DNA of 64,000 nt from Thermoplasmatota archaeon. Its GTDB lineage: Archaea; Thermoplasmatota; E2; JACPAO01; JAHFTW01. How positions within the stretch are numbered: position 1 is the stretch's first letter; each line of letters starts with the position of its first letter. The stretch covers positions 191,153-255,152 of the forward strand of contig DATLBS010000030.1 of assembly GCA_035526765.1 (NCBI GenBank), read 5' to 3'. A program made the position numbers and the translations under genes. Below, in pieces: positions 3,636 to 62,909 of this stretch. Under the pieces are notes generated by a model. That model worked only from the letters and a program-made list of their open reading frames with translations. It did no database searches and was not told where the DNA came from.

Positions 3636-3698
3636 GATGGGCCCCAGACCCGCGCTTTGCTTAACCGTGGCGGGCGAGGGCGTGGGGCCGCGGTCGCG

Positions 3699-20325: not shown

Positions 20326-20407
20326 GCGTACGCCCGCTCCCTCCTCCTCCATTCCCTCTCCTTCTCCCCCCGCTTCTTCGCCCATCGCTGCCGCCAGCGC
20401 CAGCCCC

Positions 20408-25201: not shown

Positions 25202-25822
25202 ATGCCCCTTCGCCTCGTCACGCTGGACCTCGACGGGACGCTCATCCCGCGCGACACCGTGTTCGCCGCCGTGCTGCGGGAGAACGGCAGGGCCCGCGAG
25301 GTGGAGGAGTCGGATGCGCGCTACTTCGCGGGGAAGACCACCCTGGCGGAATGCTTCTGGGAGCAGTGGGCGTGGGTCAAGCCCCTGTCGCCCGCGGACA
25401 TCCACCGGGCCCTGCGCAAGGCCAGCTGGCTTCCCGGCATCGGCGAGGGGGTCCGGCAGCTGAAGGAGGCGGGGCTCAAGGTGTGCCTCCTCACGGACCA
25501 GCCCAGCACGTTCACGGATTTCCTTGGGCGGTGGGGCCTCACCGATGCCATCTGCAGCCCGGTCACGGTCAAGGAGGGACGGCAGGTCGCCATCGAGGCC
25601 CGCTTCGACAAGCTTGCGAACCTGCGGCAACGCCTGGGGCAGTGGGGCATCGACCCGGGCGACGTGTGCCACGTCGGCAATGGCGTCAACGACGTTCCGG
25701 TGTTCGAGGCCGTGGGAGCATCGGTGGCCTGCTTCGCGCCTCCGGAGGTCACTGGCCGGGCGCGCGTGGTCCTGCCTGAGCCGGCCGACCTGCCCACCAT
25801 CGTCTCCAGGATCCTGCGTTAG
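25202..25822 (+). CDS. HAD-superfamily hydrolase (phosphoserine-phosphatase-like)
   Basis: Motif I VTLDLDGTL. C-terminal …HVGNGVNDVP… is motif IV (GDGxND). Start is 1 nt after the trm5 stop. Confidence 0.8.
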   Translation: MPLRLVTLDLDGTLIPRDTVFAAVLRENGRAREVEESDARYFAGKTTLAECFWEQWAWVKPLSPADIHRALRKASWLPGIGEGVRQLKEAGLKVCLLTDQPSTFTDFLGRWGLTDAICSPVTVKEGRQVAIEARFDKLANLRQRLGQWGIDPGDVCHVGNGVNDVPVFEAVGASVACFAPPEVTGRARVVLPEPADLPTIVSRILR

Positions 25823-25839
25823 TCATCCCGGCGCGTTCA

Positions 25840-26100
25840 CCGTACAAGCGGGAAGAAGGAAAGGGAGGAGAGAGGTGTCCGAGGATTGGATGGGAAAAGG
25901 GGTGTCCAAGTGACGGGAAGTGAAGGAGAGGGAAGAGGGAGGTGTCCGAGGATTGGAAGGGAAGAGGGGTGTCCAGGTGATCGGGATGTTGAGAGGGAGG
26001 GGGAGGAGGAAGGTGTCCAGGATAGGGAGAAGGGAGGTGTCCGGGGAGCGGGAAGGGGACGTGGGGGTCCCGGTGGATGGGAAGAGGGAGGGGAAAAGGG
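25840..26100. repeat. Purine-rich tandem repeat: two 67-bp units plus degenerate copies, with six GGTGTCC cores
   Basis: GAGGTGTCCGAGGATTGGA[T/A]GGGAA[A/G]AGGGGTGTCCA[A/G]GTGA recurs at 25871 and 25938. GGTGTCC occurs six times in about 180 bp. The top strand is almost pure purine. Confidence 0.8.
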
Positions 26101-26114
26101 GACCTGCGGCTTGC

Positions 26115-26738
26115 CTACAGGCGGCGGCGCAGCATCAGCAGGCTGCCACCCAGGGCGCCCACGGTGCCGATCATCAGCGCGCCGACCGAGGGGAACACGG
26201 GGATCTCCGTGCTGGGGCCGGTCTCGGTGCCGGGAGGGGTCGTCTCGGTGCCCGGCGGGGTCGTCTCGGTGCCGGTCGGGGTGCTCTCCTCGCACTCCAC
26301 CCAGAAGACCTTCATCTTCTCGTGCTGCTCGTCGCTGACGAAGAGCTTGTAGTGGCCGGACGGGAGCGAGTAGGGCCCGTTCAGGAAGTGGTGGGAGTCC
26401 TCGGTCTGGTCGTCGGCCGTGTAGGTGTCCTCGAGGACGACGGTCTTGTCGCCCGTCGGGGGCCAGGACTTGATCACGATCGTGCCGTGCTCGGCGTCCA
26501 TGTTGAAGCCCTCGACATAGAAGGGGCAGTCGACGTGGGGGTCGTTCTCCATCTCCCCGATGTCGCCCTCGGTGTGCACCTTCACGGTGCCGTTGTTGTT
26601 GCAGTCGGCGGCGTCATCGTCGCCGTCGCACACGGGGGCGGCCATCGCGGGCGTCCCAAGGGCCACGAGGGCAAGCCCCGTGAACAGGAAGAGGGCGGTC
26701 GTCAAGGCTAGCTTTCGGCGGGAGTTTGGGCGCACCAT
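26115..26738 (-). CDS. Secreted Thr/Pro-rich protein with a C-terminal archaeosortase-type sorting signal (hypothetical)
   Basis: Signal peptide MVRPNSRRKLALTTALFLFTGLALVALGTPAMA. Linker TPTGTETTPPGTETTPPGTETGPSTE. C-terminus IPVFPSVGALMIGTVGALGGSLLMLRRRL. Confidence 0.6.
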   Translation of the reverse strand: MVRPNSRRKLALTTALFLFTGLALVALGTPAMAAPVCDGDDDAADCNNNGTVKVHTEGDIGEMENDPHVDCPFYVEGFNMDAEHGTIVIKSWPPTGDKTVVLEDTYTADDQTEDSHHFLNGPYSLPSGHYKLFVSDEQHEKMKVFWVECEESTPTGTETTPPGTETTPPGTETGPSTEIPVFPSVGALMIGTVGALGGSLLMLRRRL

Positions 26739-26913
26739 GCGTTCCACAGACTCTGCTCATCGGACCGCATCCAAAGGGAAGTTGGGACGGATTTTCGGTC
26801 CCCGCACATATTCACGGACAGGCCTCGGCGGCCGGCCGCGCCTCCGCCCCTGCGCAACCCTGGAAAAACGAGGCCGGCCCAGTCCCCTTGTCCTAGCGGC
26901 TTCGTCCCAGCGG

Positions 26914-27492
26914 CTACGTCCCAGCCCGCAGTTCGCGGTACACGATGGGGCGCACCTTCTTGAGCCCCAGGTCGGACTTCTCGACGAGCCACCGGATGTA
27001 GGCCGCCGCCTCCTTCACGCCCCCCGCCTCACGGTCCTTGGCCAGTCGCTCGCGCAGCAGCACCGTGGCCGGGTTGGGCGCGCGTCCGCGCGGACCCTTG
27101 CCCGCACCAGCCCCCCCGCCCGCAGCGGCCGCCCGGGCCTTGCGCCGCCCGTTGCCGACCTTGCCGCCCCCGATGGCCCGCAGCTCGCGGTACACGGTCT
27201 GCTGCAGCCCCGTGCGGGACGCCTTGGGGTCGCGCGCGGCGACCCAGTCGACGTACTCCGTGGCGGGGCGGAGGCGGCCCGCCGCCTGGTCCGCGGCCAG
27301 GCGCTCGCGCAGTTCCAGCGTGCTGGGCCGCGGCGGTCGCCCCTTGCCCTGCGAAGGCCCAGAGGGCCGTCCCAGGGGCGTGACGCTGACACCCTTGCCA
27401 TAGGGGCCTGGCTGGATGCGGACAAGGCTGCCGTCCGGCAGCTCGAAGGTCATCTTGCCCTGCAATGGGGTGGAGGCGGTTCCCTTGGCCAT
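26914..27492 (-). CDS. Hypothetical nucleic-acid-binding protein with two tandem helix-extension-helix (SAP/Rho-N-like) repeats and Lys/Arg/Gly-rich spacers
   Basis: Repeats …TLELRERLAADQAAGRLRPATEYVDWVAARD…VYRELRA and …TVLLRERLAKDREAGGVKEAAAYIRWLVEKSD…VYRELRA. 192 aa. Lies 52 nt downstream of lhr. Confidence 0.5.
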   Translation of the reverse strand: MAKGTASTPLQGKMTFELPDGSLVRIQPGPYGKGVSVTPLGRPSGPSQGKGRPPRPSTLELRERLAADQAAGRLRPATEYVDWVAARDPKASRTGLQQTVYRELRAIGGGKVGNGRRKARAAAAGGGAGAGKGPRGRAPNPATVLLRERLAKDREAGGVKEAAAYIRWLVEKSDLGLKKVRPIVYRELRAGT

Positions 27493-35421: not shown

Positions 35422-35497
35422 GGGCCATTAGCCGAGACAGGTCAATGGCAGCGGACTCTTAATCCGCGATTCATCGGTTCGAATCCGATATGGCCCG
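35422..35497 (+). tRNA. tRNA-Lys (anticodon CUU)
   Basis: Acceptor GGGCCAT/ATGGCCC, D stem GCCG/TGGC, anticodon stem GCGGA/TCCGC with loop CTCTTAA, T arm ATCGG-TTCGAAT-CCGAT, discriminator G. No encoded CCA. Confidence 0.85.
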
Positions 35498-35607
35498 CTC
35501 CTCGTGGGCTTCGCCGCTCGGCGAGGCCCGTCGGATTCTAGCTTCCTCGCGTCCGCTCGGAAGCCGGTCAGCCAGCGGCGCGAATCCCAACCTAGAAGGA
35601 CGGCCCA

Positions 35608-56050: not shown

Positions 56051-59000
56051 TCAGGTCGAGATGGTGAGGCCGGGGAGGCTCCACATCGAGACGCTGCCAG
56101 GGAGCTTGCCCAGGCTGTCATTGAAGGAACCGCCGCTTGAGGGCAGGTCGAGGGCGCCCACGAAGACGCGGCCGTTCGCGAGGGAGGCCCCGCCCAGCAC
56201 CCCGCCGCCAGCGTCCAGGGTCGTGACGAGGCGACCGGTGCGGAGGTCGAAGCCCTTGAGGTGCCCTTCGTAGGTGCCGATCCAGGCCAGGCCGTTGCCC
56301 AGGGCGACGGGGGCGAAGTTCGTCCCGGTGAGCCGCTGCTCCCACAGCAGGTCCCCCGTCCTGGCATCGAGGCCGGCGATGCGGTCGACGTCGGTGGAGC
56401 TCACCACCTCGACGTCCCCGGCGATGCCGCCGGAGCCCACCATGGCGGTGCGCATCTCGAGGAGGTGGCCGCCATGCAGGAGGGACCCCGTGGCCAGGTC
56501 GACGGTCCAGGTGGGGCCGTGCTTCTCCGAGGCGGTCACCACGGGGCGGCCGTCCAGGAACGAGAGGTGCGGGGTCCCGCTGATGTCGCGGTTGATGGCC
56601 CGCGTGGTCGCCTCGGTGTCCTCCTTGTTCGTGTCGTACCAGAAGAACTGGTGCACCCAGACGATGTGGCCGTCCGTGCGGTCGAGCGCCATGAGGGAAT
56701 CCATGTTGGGCGTCTGCGGGGACCCCTCGTTGCCGGGGCTCGTGCCCACGATGACGAGGCCGGAGCCGCCAGGGACAAGGGGGGACGCCCAGACGCGGGC
56801 GCCGGAGCTGGGCTGCGGGGTGGTGGGGACCTGCCATAGCATCTGGCCGGTGGCCGGCACCAGCTTGGCGACGTACCCACGGTCTGCATCGACGCCGACG
56901 AAGAGGTCGCCCCCCTCGAGGATGGGGCTGGCCCACAGGTGTCCGCCGAAGGCCCTGCTCCACACCGTGGCGCCGTTGTCCGTGCGCAGGGCGTAGATGG
57001 TGTTGCCGGCCGCCACGATGACGAGCCCCTGGCCTTCCACGAGGGCGGGCGAGGCGTCGACGTTGGCAGGCAGCGTGACGCGCCACACGACGGTGCCCGT
57101 GGCCTCGTTCAGGCTGTAGAAGGACTTGGCCCAGGTCCCGACGTACACCCGGCCTGCCGCGACGGCGGGGGTGCTGGTGACGCTGCCGTCGACGCGGGTG
57201 CGCCACTGCAGCTCTACGTTGCCGGCGTCCGACGGTCCCGGCAGGGAAGCATCAGGGTTGTTGCGGGTGTTGAAGGTGTCGCGACCATATTGGGGCCAGC
57301 CAACGCTGGTCCCCAGGGGATCGACCAGGGGGGCGGGGGGCAGCGGGGAGGGGGCTGCGCCGGGGGTGGCGGATAGCCTGTCGAAACGCACGCTGGGTCC
57401 TGTGTAGGGGTTCTCGAAGGAGGCCCCCAGCGCGTAGCCGACGCCGGCGACCAGGAAGCGGGTCGTGCCCACGTCCACCGTGGTGCCTTCCAGCGACTCT
57501 GCGACGATGGTGCGGTTGAGCCACAGGTGGACGAGGGGGCCGGTCGTTGCGATCGTGCCCACGCCTTGCACGCGCAGGTCGTACCAGCCGGACTCGCCGA
57601 CCACCAGCGGGGACTCCAGGAACCCGAAGTCGGTGAAGCGCCACCCGGATCCTTCCGCGAGGCCGCCGGAGTGGATGCGGGCCGCGGCGCCCGTGAACGC
57701 GGTCGGAGGCGGGCTGCCCAGCAGCTGCAGGGCGGAGACCAGCACCGGTCCGCCCACGGCGCGGTACGTGACCGTGCGGGGACCGGAGGCCAGGTCGAAG
57801 GGGGTGAGGCAGGGCCGCTCGACGGGGCCGGCCACGCGCGCGTCCTGGACGATGCTGCCCTCCAGCTCGACCTGGATGCGTTGCCGCAGGTTCACGTCCG
57901 AGGGGGTGGCGACCTCGGCCAGGATGTCGCCGGGGCCGCCCATCCACGTGAACTGGATGCTGCGCGACTGGCCGTCGGCCAGCGTGAACGAGGCGCCCGT
58001 GGGGAAGTCGCCGCTGCCGCCTCCGCCGCCGCCCTCGCCGAGGCGCACGACGTCGAGGATGAGGTTGCGGTCCTCGCTGCCGCTGGCCGCGTCGTTGGTG
58101 AACGAGACCCGCACGACGTGGTCGCCGGCGGCGATGCCGGGGACCTGGTAGCCGGTGAGGGTGGCGCTCGAGACCGGGGTGGTGAGCACATCGCTGCCAT
58201 CGACGCGCACGACCATGGTTGGCCAGATGCCGCCCAACGGAGTGCCGCGCGCGACGACGGTGAGGTTGCTGGCCGTGTCGGCGCCAAGGTGGTCCTCGAT
58301 GTAGCCGTTGGACCACAGGTTCCACACTGCACCTGCCGAGGCCGTCCCCGAGAACTGCTTCCCGCCGGCCGTCTTCAGGGCGAAGACCTCCGCCTCGCGC
58401 ACGGCCACGGTGCCCGGCGGCGGGGGCGGGGGGGGCGGCGGGGGCGGGGGCGAGCCGCTGCAGGGGGTCGTCGGGGTGGCGCCGGGCCAGATGTAGCCGC
58501 CGGAGAGCGCCTGCTCGCCGCTGGTGGAGCGTGCCCGGAAGTCGACCTTTGAGCCGGAGGTGACGTGGAAGCTGGCCGCCCATCCCCCCCAGGATTGCTT
58601 GGTGAGGGACACCCATGTGGCGCTGCAGCCCGAGCGCGCATCGACGCCGGCCAGCGGCTTGTTCGCGGCGACGTTGGCCTGCACCCACCACTCGTTGCCC
58701 TTGACGCCGCTGAAGCTGGCCGAGAAATCGCCCGAGGGGGGCGGTGGGGGCGGGGGCGGTGGAGGGGGTGGGGTGGTGCCGGCGCACTTCTCGACGGCGC
58801 CCGGGTGCGTGAACCAGCAGCTCTCGACGACGGATCCGCTGGGGAAGTTGGCGCGGAACCGCACCTGGTGGCCGGCCTCGACGTGGAAGCTGGCGGCCCA
58901 CCACGTGTGGTCGCTGGTCCAGGTCTGCGGCGAGAGCGCCGTCCAGGGCCCGCCCGTGTCCATGGCTTGCACGGCCGTGGCCTTGCCGCCTTCGGTGCCG

Positions 59001-59161
59001 CCGAGGCGGACCTGCACCCACCACTCGTTGCCGCCGCCACTTGCGAAGCTCACGGTCCCGCCGCTGGGCACGGGCTGGGAATGGCTGGCCGCGGAGAACG
59101 GGATCGCGAGCAGGAGCACGACCACGCCTCCCAGGGCAGCGGCTTGGCGGGACTGGAGCAT
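56051..59161 (-). CDS. Large secreted multidomain surface protein: 2 expansin-D2/CBM63-like modules, P12 linkers, 3 CBM6-like beta-sandwich domains, C-terminal PQQ-type beta-propeller
   Basis: Signal peptide. GNEWWVQ…SW…FRA… modules x 2. Two runs of 12 Pro. …VFALKTAGGKQF…NLILDVVRL (CBM6-like). PQQ repeats …GTVVWRV…GATVWSRAF…GQMLWQV…. Confidence 0.8.
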   Translation of the reverse strand: MLQSRQAAALGGVVVLLLAIPFSAASHSQPVPSGGTVSFASGGGNEWWVQVRLGGTEGGKATAVQAMDTGGPWTALSPQTWTSDHTWWAASFHVEAGHQVRFRANFPSGSVVESCWFTHPGAVEKCAGTTPPPPPPPPPPPPSGDFSASFSGVKGNEWWVQANVAANKPLAGVDARSGCSATWVSLTKQSWGGWAASFHVTSGSKVDFRARSTSGEQALSGGYIWPGATPTTPCSGSPPPPPPPPPPPPGTVAVREAEVFALKTAGGKQFSGTASAGAVWNLWSNGYIEDHLGADTASNLTVVARGTPLGGIWPTMVVRVDGSDVLTTPVSSATLTGYQVPGIAAGDHVVRVSFTNDAASGSEDRNLILDVVRLGEGGGGGGSGDFPTGASFTLADGQSRSIQFTWMGGPGDILAEVATPSDVNLRQRIQVELEGSIVQDARVAGPVERPCLTPFDLASGPRTVTYRAVGGPVLVSALQLLGSPPPTAFTGAAARIHSGGLAEGSGWRFTDFGFLESPLVVGESGWYDLRVQGVGTIATTGPLVHLWLNRTIVAESLEGTTVDVGTTRFLVAGVGYALGASFENPYTGPSVRFDRLSATPGAAPSPLPPAPLVDPLGTSVGWPQYGRDTFNTRNNPDASLPGPSDAGNVELQWRTRVDGSVTSTPAVAAGRVYVGTWAKSFYSLNEATGTVVWRVTLPANVDASPALVEGQGLVIVAAGNTIYALRTDNGATVWSRAFGGHLWASPILEGGDLFVGVDADRGYVAKLVPATGQMLWQVPTTPQPSSGARVWASPLVPGGSGLVIVGTSPGNEGSPQTPNMDSLMALDRTDGHIVWVHQFFWYDTNKEDTEATTRAINRDISGTPHLSFLDGRPVVTASEKHGPTWTVDLATGSLLHGGHLLEMRTAMVGSGGIAGDVEVVSSTDVDRIAGLDARTGDLLWEQRLTGTNFAPVALGNGLAWIGTYEGHLKGFDLRTGRLVTTLDAGGGVLGGASLANGRVFVGALDLPSSGGSFNDSLGKLPGSVSMWSLPGLTIST

Positions 59162-61271: not shown

Positions 61272-62909
61272 TCAGGCGCGGCGCCGGAAGGCCAGCGCGG
61301 CCAGCAGCATCGCCGCCAGCGGCACGAAGGCGGGCAGGGGCGTGCCCTTGCCGGTGTCCGTCGTGCCGTCGCCGTCGGAGTCGGGGTCCTGCTCGTTGGC
61401 GATGCCGTCGCCGTCCCGGTCCGGGTCCTGGTCGTTGGGGATGCCGTCGGCGTCCAGGTCGGTGGCCGTGGTCGCGACATCCGATTTCGCGAACAGTCCC
61501 CTGCCCTCGGTCTGCCGCATGACGCGGGCGGCGCGGTCGCGGTACCCCTGGCTTCCCGTCTTGAGGGTGGAGGCGCACTCGCGGGTGCAGCCGTCCGCGA
61601 ACCCGATGACCATGCGGCCGTTGGAGTCGATGTCCATGTCCTTGAAGTCCAGCAGGTTGCGGCAGGCGCCCGAGCCGTCCACGACGACATCGTACATGCC
61701 ACCCAGCTGCACCGGGTCGTCGCTGACGCGCTTGACGGTCCAGGTCTGCCCGGCGTCATAGCTGGCAGCGATGTAGGAACGCCACACCAGGTCCTCCTGG
61801 CGCTCGTCGCAGTTGTAGATGCGGTCTGAGCGCAGGTAGGTGCGGTTGGCGGCGGTCTCCTCGAGGCCGAAGAAGCTCAGGGCCACGCGGTCGTCGTCGC
61901 CGGCCTCCACGTCCGTGAAGGAGCCGGCCCACACGGGCGGGCTGGCCAGGAGGCCGAGGTCGAGCCAGCCGGTCGCGGCGCCGTGCGAGGAGCCCAGCGG
62001 CTCCCAGGTCTTCCCCTCGTCCTTGGTGAGGGCGACGTGGACGCCGTGCTCCGATGCCATCGCATAATACATCCAGCCGGAGGCGCGGGTGAACTGCAGG
62101 CTCGGGTCGAAGCCGTTGGCCCACTCCTCGGTCCCGGGGACCTCGTTGGATTTCCAGGTGAGCCCCCCGTCGGCGGTCGAGAGGAAGCCGTGGCGTTCGC
62201 CGCATGCGCCGGTGGGCACCGCCACGAAGCCGTCGCGCGGGTTGACCTGAAGGTGCCCGTGGAAGCCGTGGCAGGCGCCCGGGACGTCCACGAACGGTCC
62301 CCAGACCTGGCCGCCGTCGAGGCTGCGCGCGCAACTGATGGTGCCTCCCTGAGCGCAGTAGTAGGCCACGTGCCCGCCCTCGGAGGTGACCGGCAAGGGT
62401 CCGGCGGGCGGCCCGGTGCCGACGGTCTGGTGGTCGAAGTTGGACCCGCTGCACATGTTGATGGAGGGCAGCCAGGTGGCTCCGTCGTCGTCGGAGATCA
62501 TCATCTCGCTGCAGGGGCCGAGGAGGCCGCCGGCGAAGACGCGACCGGTCGTGACGTCGGCGTAGATCATGGGGTCGAGGTTCTGCGGGACCTGGTAGGG
62601 AGGGGTGACATCGGCCCACGTGGGCTTGCCTGCGGCGTCGAAGCGGGCGCGGTACGTGTGGACGCCGGCATGGTAGAACACGGAGTCGGTGGTCCACGGG
62701 ATGCCCAGGGTGGGCTCCGAGGCACCGGTGGCCGCAGGCACGGCGAACTCGGTGAAGGCGGGGGCTCCCGACTGGCCGAAGGAGGCAGTTGCGTCCGGGA
62801 CGAGGACCAGGGTGAGCGTCAGGACGGCAACGAGCGGGAAGAGGATGCGCACGTCCCTTCGGAAGCTGGCTGCTTCATCAAGGTTGGGGGGCGCCCCTGC
62901 GCCTGCCAA
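61272..62909 (-). CDS. Secreted BNR/Asp-box repeat (sialidase-like propeller) protein with TSP3-like Ca-binding repeats and a C-terminal archaeosortase-type sorting signal
   Basis: Five SxDxGxTW Asp-boxes. DLDADGIPNDQDPDRDGDGIANEQDPDSDGDG. C-terminus PLPAFVPLAAMLLAALAFRRRA. TTG start. Confidence 0.7.
   Translation of the reverse strand: MAGAGAPPNLDEAASFRRDVRILFPLVAVLTLTLVLVPDATASFGQSGAPAFTEFAVPAATGASEPTLGIPWTTDSVFYHAGVHTYRARFDAAGKPTWADVTPPYQVPQNLDPMIYADVTTGRVFAGGLLGPCSEMMISDDDGATWLPSINMCSGSNFDHQTVGTGPPAGPLPVTSEGGHVAYYCAQGGTISCARSLDGGQVWGPFVDVPGACHGFHGHLQVNPRDGFVAVPTGACGERHGFLSTADGGLTWKSNEVPGTEEWANGFDPSLQFTRASGWMYYAMASEHGVHVALTKDEGKTWEPLGSSHGAATGWLDLGLLASPPVWAGSFTDVEAGDDDRVALSFFGLEETAANRTYLRSDRIYNCDERQEDLVWRSYIAASYDAGQTWTVKRVSDDPVQLGGMYDVVVDGSGACRNLLDFKDMDIDSNGRMVIGFADGCTRECASTLKTGSQGYRDRAARVMRQTEGRGLFAKSDVATTATDLDADGIPNDQDPDRDGDGIANEQDPDSDGDGTTDTGKGTPLPAFVPLAAMLLAALAFRRRA

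Follow-up and report, generated by a model that had tools for sequence, protein, structure and literature searches.

Intergenic minisatellites consist of head-to-tail copies of a 10-100-nt unit, and VNTRs are defined by copy-number polymorphism. In Archaea, terminators take the form of T/U stretches for which a hairpin is not obligatory, and a T5C motif is found in the GC-rich Haloferax volcanii (PMC7237163; PMC8716108); FttA/aCPSF1 binds U-rich nascent RNA over ~36 nt (PMC11616081). The rut sites of bacterial Rho are C-rich, G-poor, and unstructured stretches of RNA, ~70-80 nt or more in length, that become exposed where translation has ended (PMC8501993; PMC13323073). The tract described here, a purine-rich tandem repeat between two genes of an uncultured archaeon, shares traits with all of these systems.

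The tract fills most of a 292-nt intergenic gap (25823-26114) between convergent genes for a HAD-family hydrolase (+) and a secreted protein (-), as the earlier note on this DNA had already recognized. Both lie in the window, by which we mean the whole 64,000-nucleotide stretch that was analyzed; it has a GC content of 70%, against 62% for the array, and its housekeeping genes include those for archaeal Trm5b, an Lhr-type helicase, A/V-type ATPase subunit D, and ribosomal protein L11, with tRNA-Lys(CTT) at 35422-35498 as the sole RNA gene detected. The nearest HAD homologs in GTDB genomes belong to Thermoplasmatota MAGs (61-78% identity), and the secreted protein is identical, start codon apart, to NCBI VM286_09215 from a ‘Candidatus Thermoplasmatota archaeon’ MAG. 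The family of the secreted protein (26115-26747 on the - strand, and P0002-P0020) is uncharacterized and has no Pfam or NCBIfam match; it carries an invariant, sorting-signal-like C-terminal motif, IP[VF]FP-x-TM-RR[RK], all orthologs end in ...MLRRRL followed by the stop, and the named homologs include Thermoplasmatota, Chloroflexi, and actinobacteria. Within the gene itself, a 21-nt × 3 tandem repeat at 26221-26282 (90% matches) encodes a Thr/Pro/Glu/Gly linker (TETTPPG repeats), the length of which varies among orthologs (alignment A3). Elsewhere in the window, a 39-nt × 2.5 tandem repeat at 61364-61460 (86% matches, TRF score 138) lies within a predicted - strand ORF (61272-62852) and is presumably a 13-aa coding repeat.

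On the + strand, positions 25840-26100 comprise 137 G, 71 A, 30 T, and 23 C, a purine fraction of 80% that is six standard deviations above that of the window as a whole (mean 50%, sd 4.8%); the richest other 261-nt stretch in the window reaches 63%. The description of this strand in the earlier note as almost exclusively purine was therefore overstated; the boundaries it gave, 25840-26100, were confirmed except at the right-hand end, where the tract continues to 26104. The note also overlooked the key context, namely that on the other strand the tract forms the 3′ flank, rich in pyrimidine, of the secreted-protein gene. Read on the sense strand of that gene, the tract is 52% C, 27% T, 11% A, and 9% G; the 3′ flank of the HAD gene is conversely the purine-rich strand, and no T-run follows that gene.

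Internally, the tract is a degenerate tandem array with hierarchical duplication. TRF returned a period of 67 nt (2.5 copies, 25855-26023, 85% matches) with a score of 236, the top score in the window, as well as shorter periods of 24 nt (25995-26063) and 12 nt (26075-26100), and a repeat search recovered a 59-nt core in two copies with 90% identity (25855-25913 and 25922-25980) and a third with 61%. These results bear out the 67-bp tandem repeat described in the earlier note, with copies ~90% identical; its near-identical cores are also present, although 42 nt long (25872-25913 and 25939-25980) rather than 44 nt, as are its divergent tails, which measure ~25 nt rather than 23 nt. All six of the reported GGTGTCC motifs were located, all on the + strand, starting at 25874, 25901, 25941, 25968, 26012, and 26036 and thus spaced by 27, 40, 27, 44, and 24 nt; at least six copies in 170 nt would have a Poisson probability of ~2e-12, a figure that treats as independent copies that arise by duplication. 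The series is completed by two more cores that are degenerate, GGGGGTCC (26063-26070) and GGGGACC (26098-26104). Cutting the tract after each core yielded eight units of 24-44 nt that share a ~24-nt purine-rich consensus, ..GGA.GGGGAGGAGGGAGGTGTCC (alignment A1), and the alignment of all units to this common consensus suggests that a single small unit was duplicated several times over to build the array, the 67-nt repeat being the latest step. The core of the last unit, U8, closest to the stop codon of the secreted-protein gene, is a 24-nt uninterrupted purine run on the + strand; on the sense strand, its T4 run (26094-26097) falls at +18 to +21 after the stop. A second T4 lies at 25895-25898, giving two T4 runs in 265 nt, and runs of T5 or longer are absent from the tract. 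With its 67- and 24-nt periods and eight head-to-tail units, the array has the structure of a minisatellite, as the earlier note had suggested among other readings.

Table 1. Positions of the tract, its parts, and associated features in the window, and the corresponding features of orthologous loci.
Feature	Position	Strand	Description
HAD-family hydrolase gene	25202-25822	+	Pfam Hydrolase/HAD
Secreted-protein gene	26115-26747	-	Signal peptide and C-terminal membrane anchor; 210 aa
Whole tract	25840-26104		Polypurine on + strand, polypyrimidine on - strand; non-coding; basis, composition
Higher-order 67-nt tandem repeat	25855-26023	+	2.5 copies; TRF, repeat search
Eight degenerate base units	25849-26104	+	Each ends GG(T/G)G(T/A)CC
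U1	25849-25880	+	Alignment A1
U2	25881-25907	+	Alignment A1
U3	25908-25947	+	Alignment A1
U4	25948-25974	+	Alignment A1
U5	25975-26018	+	Alignment A1
U6	26019-26042	+	Alignment A1
U7	26043-26070	+	Alignment A1
U8	26071-26104	+	Alignment A1
Six exact GGTGTCC	25874-26042	+	GGACACC on sense strand of secreted-protein gene
Stop-proximal unit (U8 core)	26079-26104	-	CCCCTTTTCCCCTCCCTCTTCCC; starts ~+12 after stop
Two canonical G-quadruplex motifs	26043-26067, 26079-26101	+	G4 motif search
Ribosomal protein L11 gene	19852-20325	+	
Second tract of the class in the window	20337-20379	+	43 nt, 95% pyrimidine, +12 after L11 stop
L011 tract			ctccctcttcccctccctcccctcctccctt; no T-run
L010 tract			ccttcctctccccctctttcctattttttt; T6-T7 in L010/L001
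L013 tract			ccctttccctccttcttcctc
L001 tract			ctccccccgcccctctccttttcccctgttttttc; T6-T7 in L010/L001
~280-aa membrane-protein gene	L010 3778-4614; L011 3701-4570; equivalent position in L001		

Four orthologous loci were recovered via protein homologs, namely L010 (JGI metagenome, 68% identity), L011 (Logan, 65%), L013 (NCBI MAG, 60%), and L001, which also has an ortholog. In all four, a polypyrimidine tract of 21-36 nt follows the ...MLRRRL-stop after a spacer of ~8-13 nt. The U8 core aligns with the short post-stop tracts of all four loci and is a direct match to that of L011; because the stop-proximal unit of the window matches the L011 tract, the window appears to carry the same feature, extended 6-8 fold. 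In L013, both genes of the convergent pair carry a tract, each on its own sense strand, which argues for a 3′-end feature rather than a promoter element. A further Logan contig with another ortholog (L012) stops 38 nt past the stop codon, and those 38 nt (3645-3683) are not pyrimidine-rich. In the sole other assembly of the window locus, a Logan contig (SRR8554898) from a different assembler that encodes an identical HAD protein, the gap to the next gene is also 292 nt; the closest other genomes belong to different species and have a single unit. Nine GTDB loci were additionally found with the HAD protein, but these have different downstream genes and no purine tract after HAD.

The orthologous loci also differ from the window in gene content. 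In L001, L010, and L011, a gene for a multi-pass membrane protein of 278-289 aa lies between the secreted-protein gene and HAD, and no homolog of it is present in the window; the presence of the gene in three relatives and its absence here are read as a loss in the lineage of the window. In L010, the secreted-protein gene and the ~280-aa gene are each followed by a polypyrimidine tract, so that the gene may plausibly have been removed when two direct, low-complexity tracts of this kind recombined with loss of the intervening DNA. Neither tblastn nor blastn detected similarity between the tract of the window and the ~280-aa gene of L010 or L011.

To place the short tracts in a wider context, genes were called by a codon log-likelihood model, and the 25-nt stretch richest in pyrimidine among the 80 nt downstream of each stop was scored at a threshold of at least 88% pyrimidine, with the nine HAD-synteny loci serving as extra sequence for these statistics. 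On the sense strand, 13 of 127 genes from the window and its high-GC relatives reached the threshold, compared with 0.76% of background windows (binomial P ~2e-11), whereas only three genes did so on the antisense strand; lower-GC relatives contributed a further 3 of 47 genes, for a combined 16 of 174 (~9%, or roughly one in eleven, vs. ~0.8% of background windows). The short tracts are 21-44 nt long and begin at +8 to +14 after the stop. T-runs are enriched in the same position, with T4 or longer after 15 of 128 stops (1.8% in the background) and T5 or longer after 7 of 128 (0.25%), and about half of the polypyrimidine tracts (7 of 13) contain a run of T4-T7. The window has a second member of the class downstream of the gene for ribosomal protein L11, the orthologs of which in L001, L002, L003, L007, and L009 have the same post-stop tract at the same offset, for six genomes including the window. 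The 192-aa gene upstream of the secreted-protein gene (26914-27492, -) has a 3′ flank (26850-26915) with a plain T5 run (cgtttttcc) and not a polypyrimidine tract; therefore, both kinds of 3′ flank coexist in this genome. No comparably expanded tract was found in ~190 kb of related sequence, nor in 222 kb of loci with distant homologs. Alignment of the secreted protein against metagenomes, with matches mostly from contigs taken as soil samples, returned distant homologs only (36-48% identity), none with a purine- or pyrimidine-rich stretch of at least 60 nt.

From their position and composition, the short tracts are putative terminator regions of this lineage, an uncultured group of Thermoplasmatota with 60-72% GC in which a nearly pure C/T tract lies at a fixed distance past the stop of ~9% of genes. 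If so, they would show how the archaeal U-tract signal is accommodated in high-GC genomes, could improve the calling of operons and 3′-end boundaries in MAGs, and would yield a testable prediction on the sequence preference of FttA/aCPSF1. The array itself is of little import, being a one-off, lineage-specific non-coding expansion with no sign of a new mechanism.

Taken together, we consider it probable that the array arose by tandem amplification, specific to this lineage, of the terminator-like and pyrimidine-rich tract that lies 3′ of the secreted-protein gene; it is most likely for the greater part an ordinary non-coding minisatellite and not a new kind of element. According to this explanation, the tract is the non-coding 3′ end of the minus-strand secreted-protein gene and would be unstructured and C/U-rich as RNA, and the short tracts may be the form that the archaeal oligo-U terminator, or the binding region of FttA/aCPSF1, takes in this lineage. 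An ancestral tract of ~30 nt, presumably the U8 core, would have undergone tandem duplications by slippage or unequal exchange to give eight degenerate units spanning ~265 nt, with a 67-nt duplication as the final step, and the product would now fill the place where relatives have the ~280-aa membrane-protein gene. To judge by position and composition, the secreted-protein transcript most likely ends at the stop-proximal unit, which has the T4 run, and the other units are probably neutral and would at most provide redundancy between the convergent genes. GGTGTCC would then be no more than the stretch of the duplicated unit that carries pyrimidines, its six copies hitch-hiking rather than being independently selected.

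Three findings weigh against this explanation. The documented preference of FttA is for U-rich RNA, whereas the tract is C-rich and has only the two T4 runs; an expansion of equal size was seen nowhere else in the ~190 kb of related sequence or the 222 kb of loci with distant homologs, leaving a general proneness of such tracts to slippage without support; and exact GGTGTCC is kept in six units while their flanks differ by 10-40%. The last of these could reflect selection on the core, but an alignment anchored on the sole pyrimidines, together with recent duplication, also explains it.

A more far-reaching reading, which we regard as doubtful, holds that C-dominated polypyrimidine tracts are an undescribed class of FttA-loading terminator in high-GC Thermoplasmatota, and that the array is an amplified ‘super-terminator’ or insulator. 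The tracts would serve FttA/aCPSF1 as unstructured loading sites, as rut sites serve Rho, and their offset of +8 to +14 would correspond approximately to the point at which the mRNA leaves the terminating ribosome; the strand-asymmetric 265-nt array may have been selected once gene loss had joined two convergent genes. A variant of this reading, in which the GGACACC cores are bound by a hypothetical roadblock protein, is less likely.

That the multiplicity of GGTGTCC (or GGACACC) reflects a site for a DNA- or RNA-binding protein, several copies of which would be recruited (a chromatin protein, for instance, or one that binds origins or acts as a roadblock terminator), is improbable. Six exact 7-mers and two near-copies do lie within 230 nt, and conservation within the unit is highest in the core (alignment A1), but duplication alone explains this multiplicity, and the protein-binding array proposed in the earlier note found nothing in its favor beyond the repetition itself. 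The excess of GGTGTCC is purely local (19 copies in the whole window against 16 expected), and the motif does not occur in the orthologous tracts and hardly at all in related loci. The search for further arrays that the note had suggested came up empty for the remainder of the window, and a pair of GGTGTCC motifs separated by 20 purine-biased nt had no match in JGI metagenome contigs. A three-core pattern with the spacing of the array matched 119 stretches of viral contigs; L060, the one that was inspected, proved to be a coding acidic repeat, and among the 25 viral three-core loci that have a purine- or pyrimidine-rich stretch, only one has it adjoining the match. Within the array, the spacing is irregular and without helical phasing, every copy is in direct orientation, and GGTGTCC is not palindromic; there is neither an adjacent promoter nor an AT-rich unwinding element, and the 27 ORFs scanned include no orc1/cdc6. 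A replication origin, which was considered separately, was rejected on the last two of these grounds and on the absence of inverted ORBs. A Shine-Dalgarno/anti-Shine-Dalgarno ‘sponge’ (GGAGGTG on the + strand, CACCTCC on the - strand) was also rejected, SD-like motifs being unenriched upstream of 128 predicted starts. A scan for bacterial promoters and terminators found nothing, hairpin-plus-T sites included, which was to be expected of an archaeon.

Quite improbable, in our assessment, is a functional non-B structure or R-loop, in which a G-quadruplex, H-DNA, or a stable purine-RNA:DNA hybrid would stall the polymerases transcribing HAD and so insulate the convergent genes. The 80% purine strand, the lack of a + strand T-run terminator for the HAD gene, and two canonical G-quadruplex motifs, each with four runs of at least three G and loops of up to 7 nt, are consistent with such a role, and G4Hunter exceeds 2 at 26042-26069 and 26077-26102. 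However, such motifs abound in the window, which at 70% GC has 24 of them, many within genes, and they say little on function. G-rich simple repeats with high G4Hunter values (GGGGGC/GGCGGCGGG) occur at 57326-57354, 58415-58452, and 58737-58773 inside one large - strand ORF (56051-59161). The triplex or H-DNA propensity put forward in the earlier note also found no support, with purine runs broken every 15-26 nt (the longest pure run being 26 nt), no perfect mirror arms of at least 8 nt, and one imperfect 10-nt mirror that was equaled in 8.5% of shuffles; the long homopurine run and mirror symmetry of H-DNA are therefore both lacking. The short tracts of the relatives, moreover, lie on the sense strand of the upstream gene, which points to a role at the level of RNA or termination and on the pyrimidine strand rather than to one of DNA structure.

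An assembly artefact, a mobile-element remnant, or a pseudogene remnant of the lost ~280-aa gene is very improbable, even though low-complexity repeats are prone to mis-assembly and a gene is missing at the locus relative to its relatives. A different assembler gives the same 292-nt gap, making an assembler artefact, the refutation that the earlier note had anticipated, unlikely; the 67-nt period lies below typical read length and the copies are 10% diverged. Neither the terminal inverted repeats of a MITE or other mobile element nor a second, dispersed copy was found in the window, related loci, or metagenome contigs, and nucleotide or protein similarity to the ~280-aa gene was nil.

Least credible is an independent gene, either for a small non-coding RNA or for a low-complexity peptide (Pro/Ser-rich on the - strand, Gly/Glu/Arg-rich on the + strand), given that the open minus-strand frames across the tract, which could speak for a peptide, follow from its composition, stop codons requiring bases that are scarce there, that GC3 is at most 0.72 in any frame against a gene mean of 0.92, that neither the 67-nt period nor the 40- and 44-nt units are multiples of 3, that both strands are too T-poor for a TATA box, that homologous copies were not found in the window, related loci, or metagenome contigs, that folding energy equals that of shuffles on both strands (z -0.13, +0.33), and that ARAGORN detected nothing tRNA-derived and Rfam had no match at gathering score, only chance-level hits (E at least 0.7), among them a weak C/D-box sRNA match (sR58, E = 2) with no C or D boxes visible in the sequence.

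Of the systems outlined above, archaeal U-tract/FttA sites share with the tract a position directly 3′ of the gene and on the sense strand (+12, and ~+8 to +13 in orthologs) and a hairpin-free, accessible RNA, the minimum free energy being no better than that of shuffles on either strand. The T4 runs of the tract, followed by C, recall the Haloferax T5C motif (PMC7237163), the 21-44-nt length of tracts in the lineage is similar to the ~36-nt RNA contact of FttA (PMC11616081), and T-runs are enriched after stops in the lineage. Unlike those sites, the tracts of this lineage are C-dominated rather than U-rich, with T4 or longer in about half of them, and the copy in the window, a putative terminator, is 6-8 times the normal length and internally repeated. 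The longest T-run is a T4 in the window and T6-T7 in L010 and L001, and L011 has none.

Rho rut sites offer a second comparison, as a transcript of the tract would be 52% C and 9% G and have no stable fold; the likeness would be functional only, and the documented preference of FttA is for U and not C. To our knowledge, Archaea do not have Rho. With H-DNA and G-quadruplex tracts, the array has in common a strong strand asymmetry and two canonical G4 motifs, but it has neither the mirror symmetry nor the long uninterrupted homopurine run of the former, and its density of G4 motifs is not distinctive for the genome. Archaeal ORB repeats are likewise short repeated motifs with G-rich flanks in intergenic DNA; the copies in the array are instead all direct and not inverted around an AT-rich unwinding element, the GC content is 62%, orc1/cdc6 is absent among the 27 ORFs scanned, and GGTGTCC is not known to resemble the ORB consensus sequences. 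Finally, the array resembles intergenic minisatellites and VNTRs in its head-to-tail degenerate units of tens of nucleotides, its hierarchical duplication, and its lineage specificity, except that its units would derive from a functional-looking 3′ tract and not from anonymous sequence; it is a variant of the archaeal U-tract terminators combined with a minisatellite.
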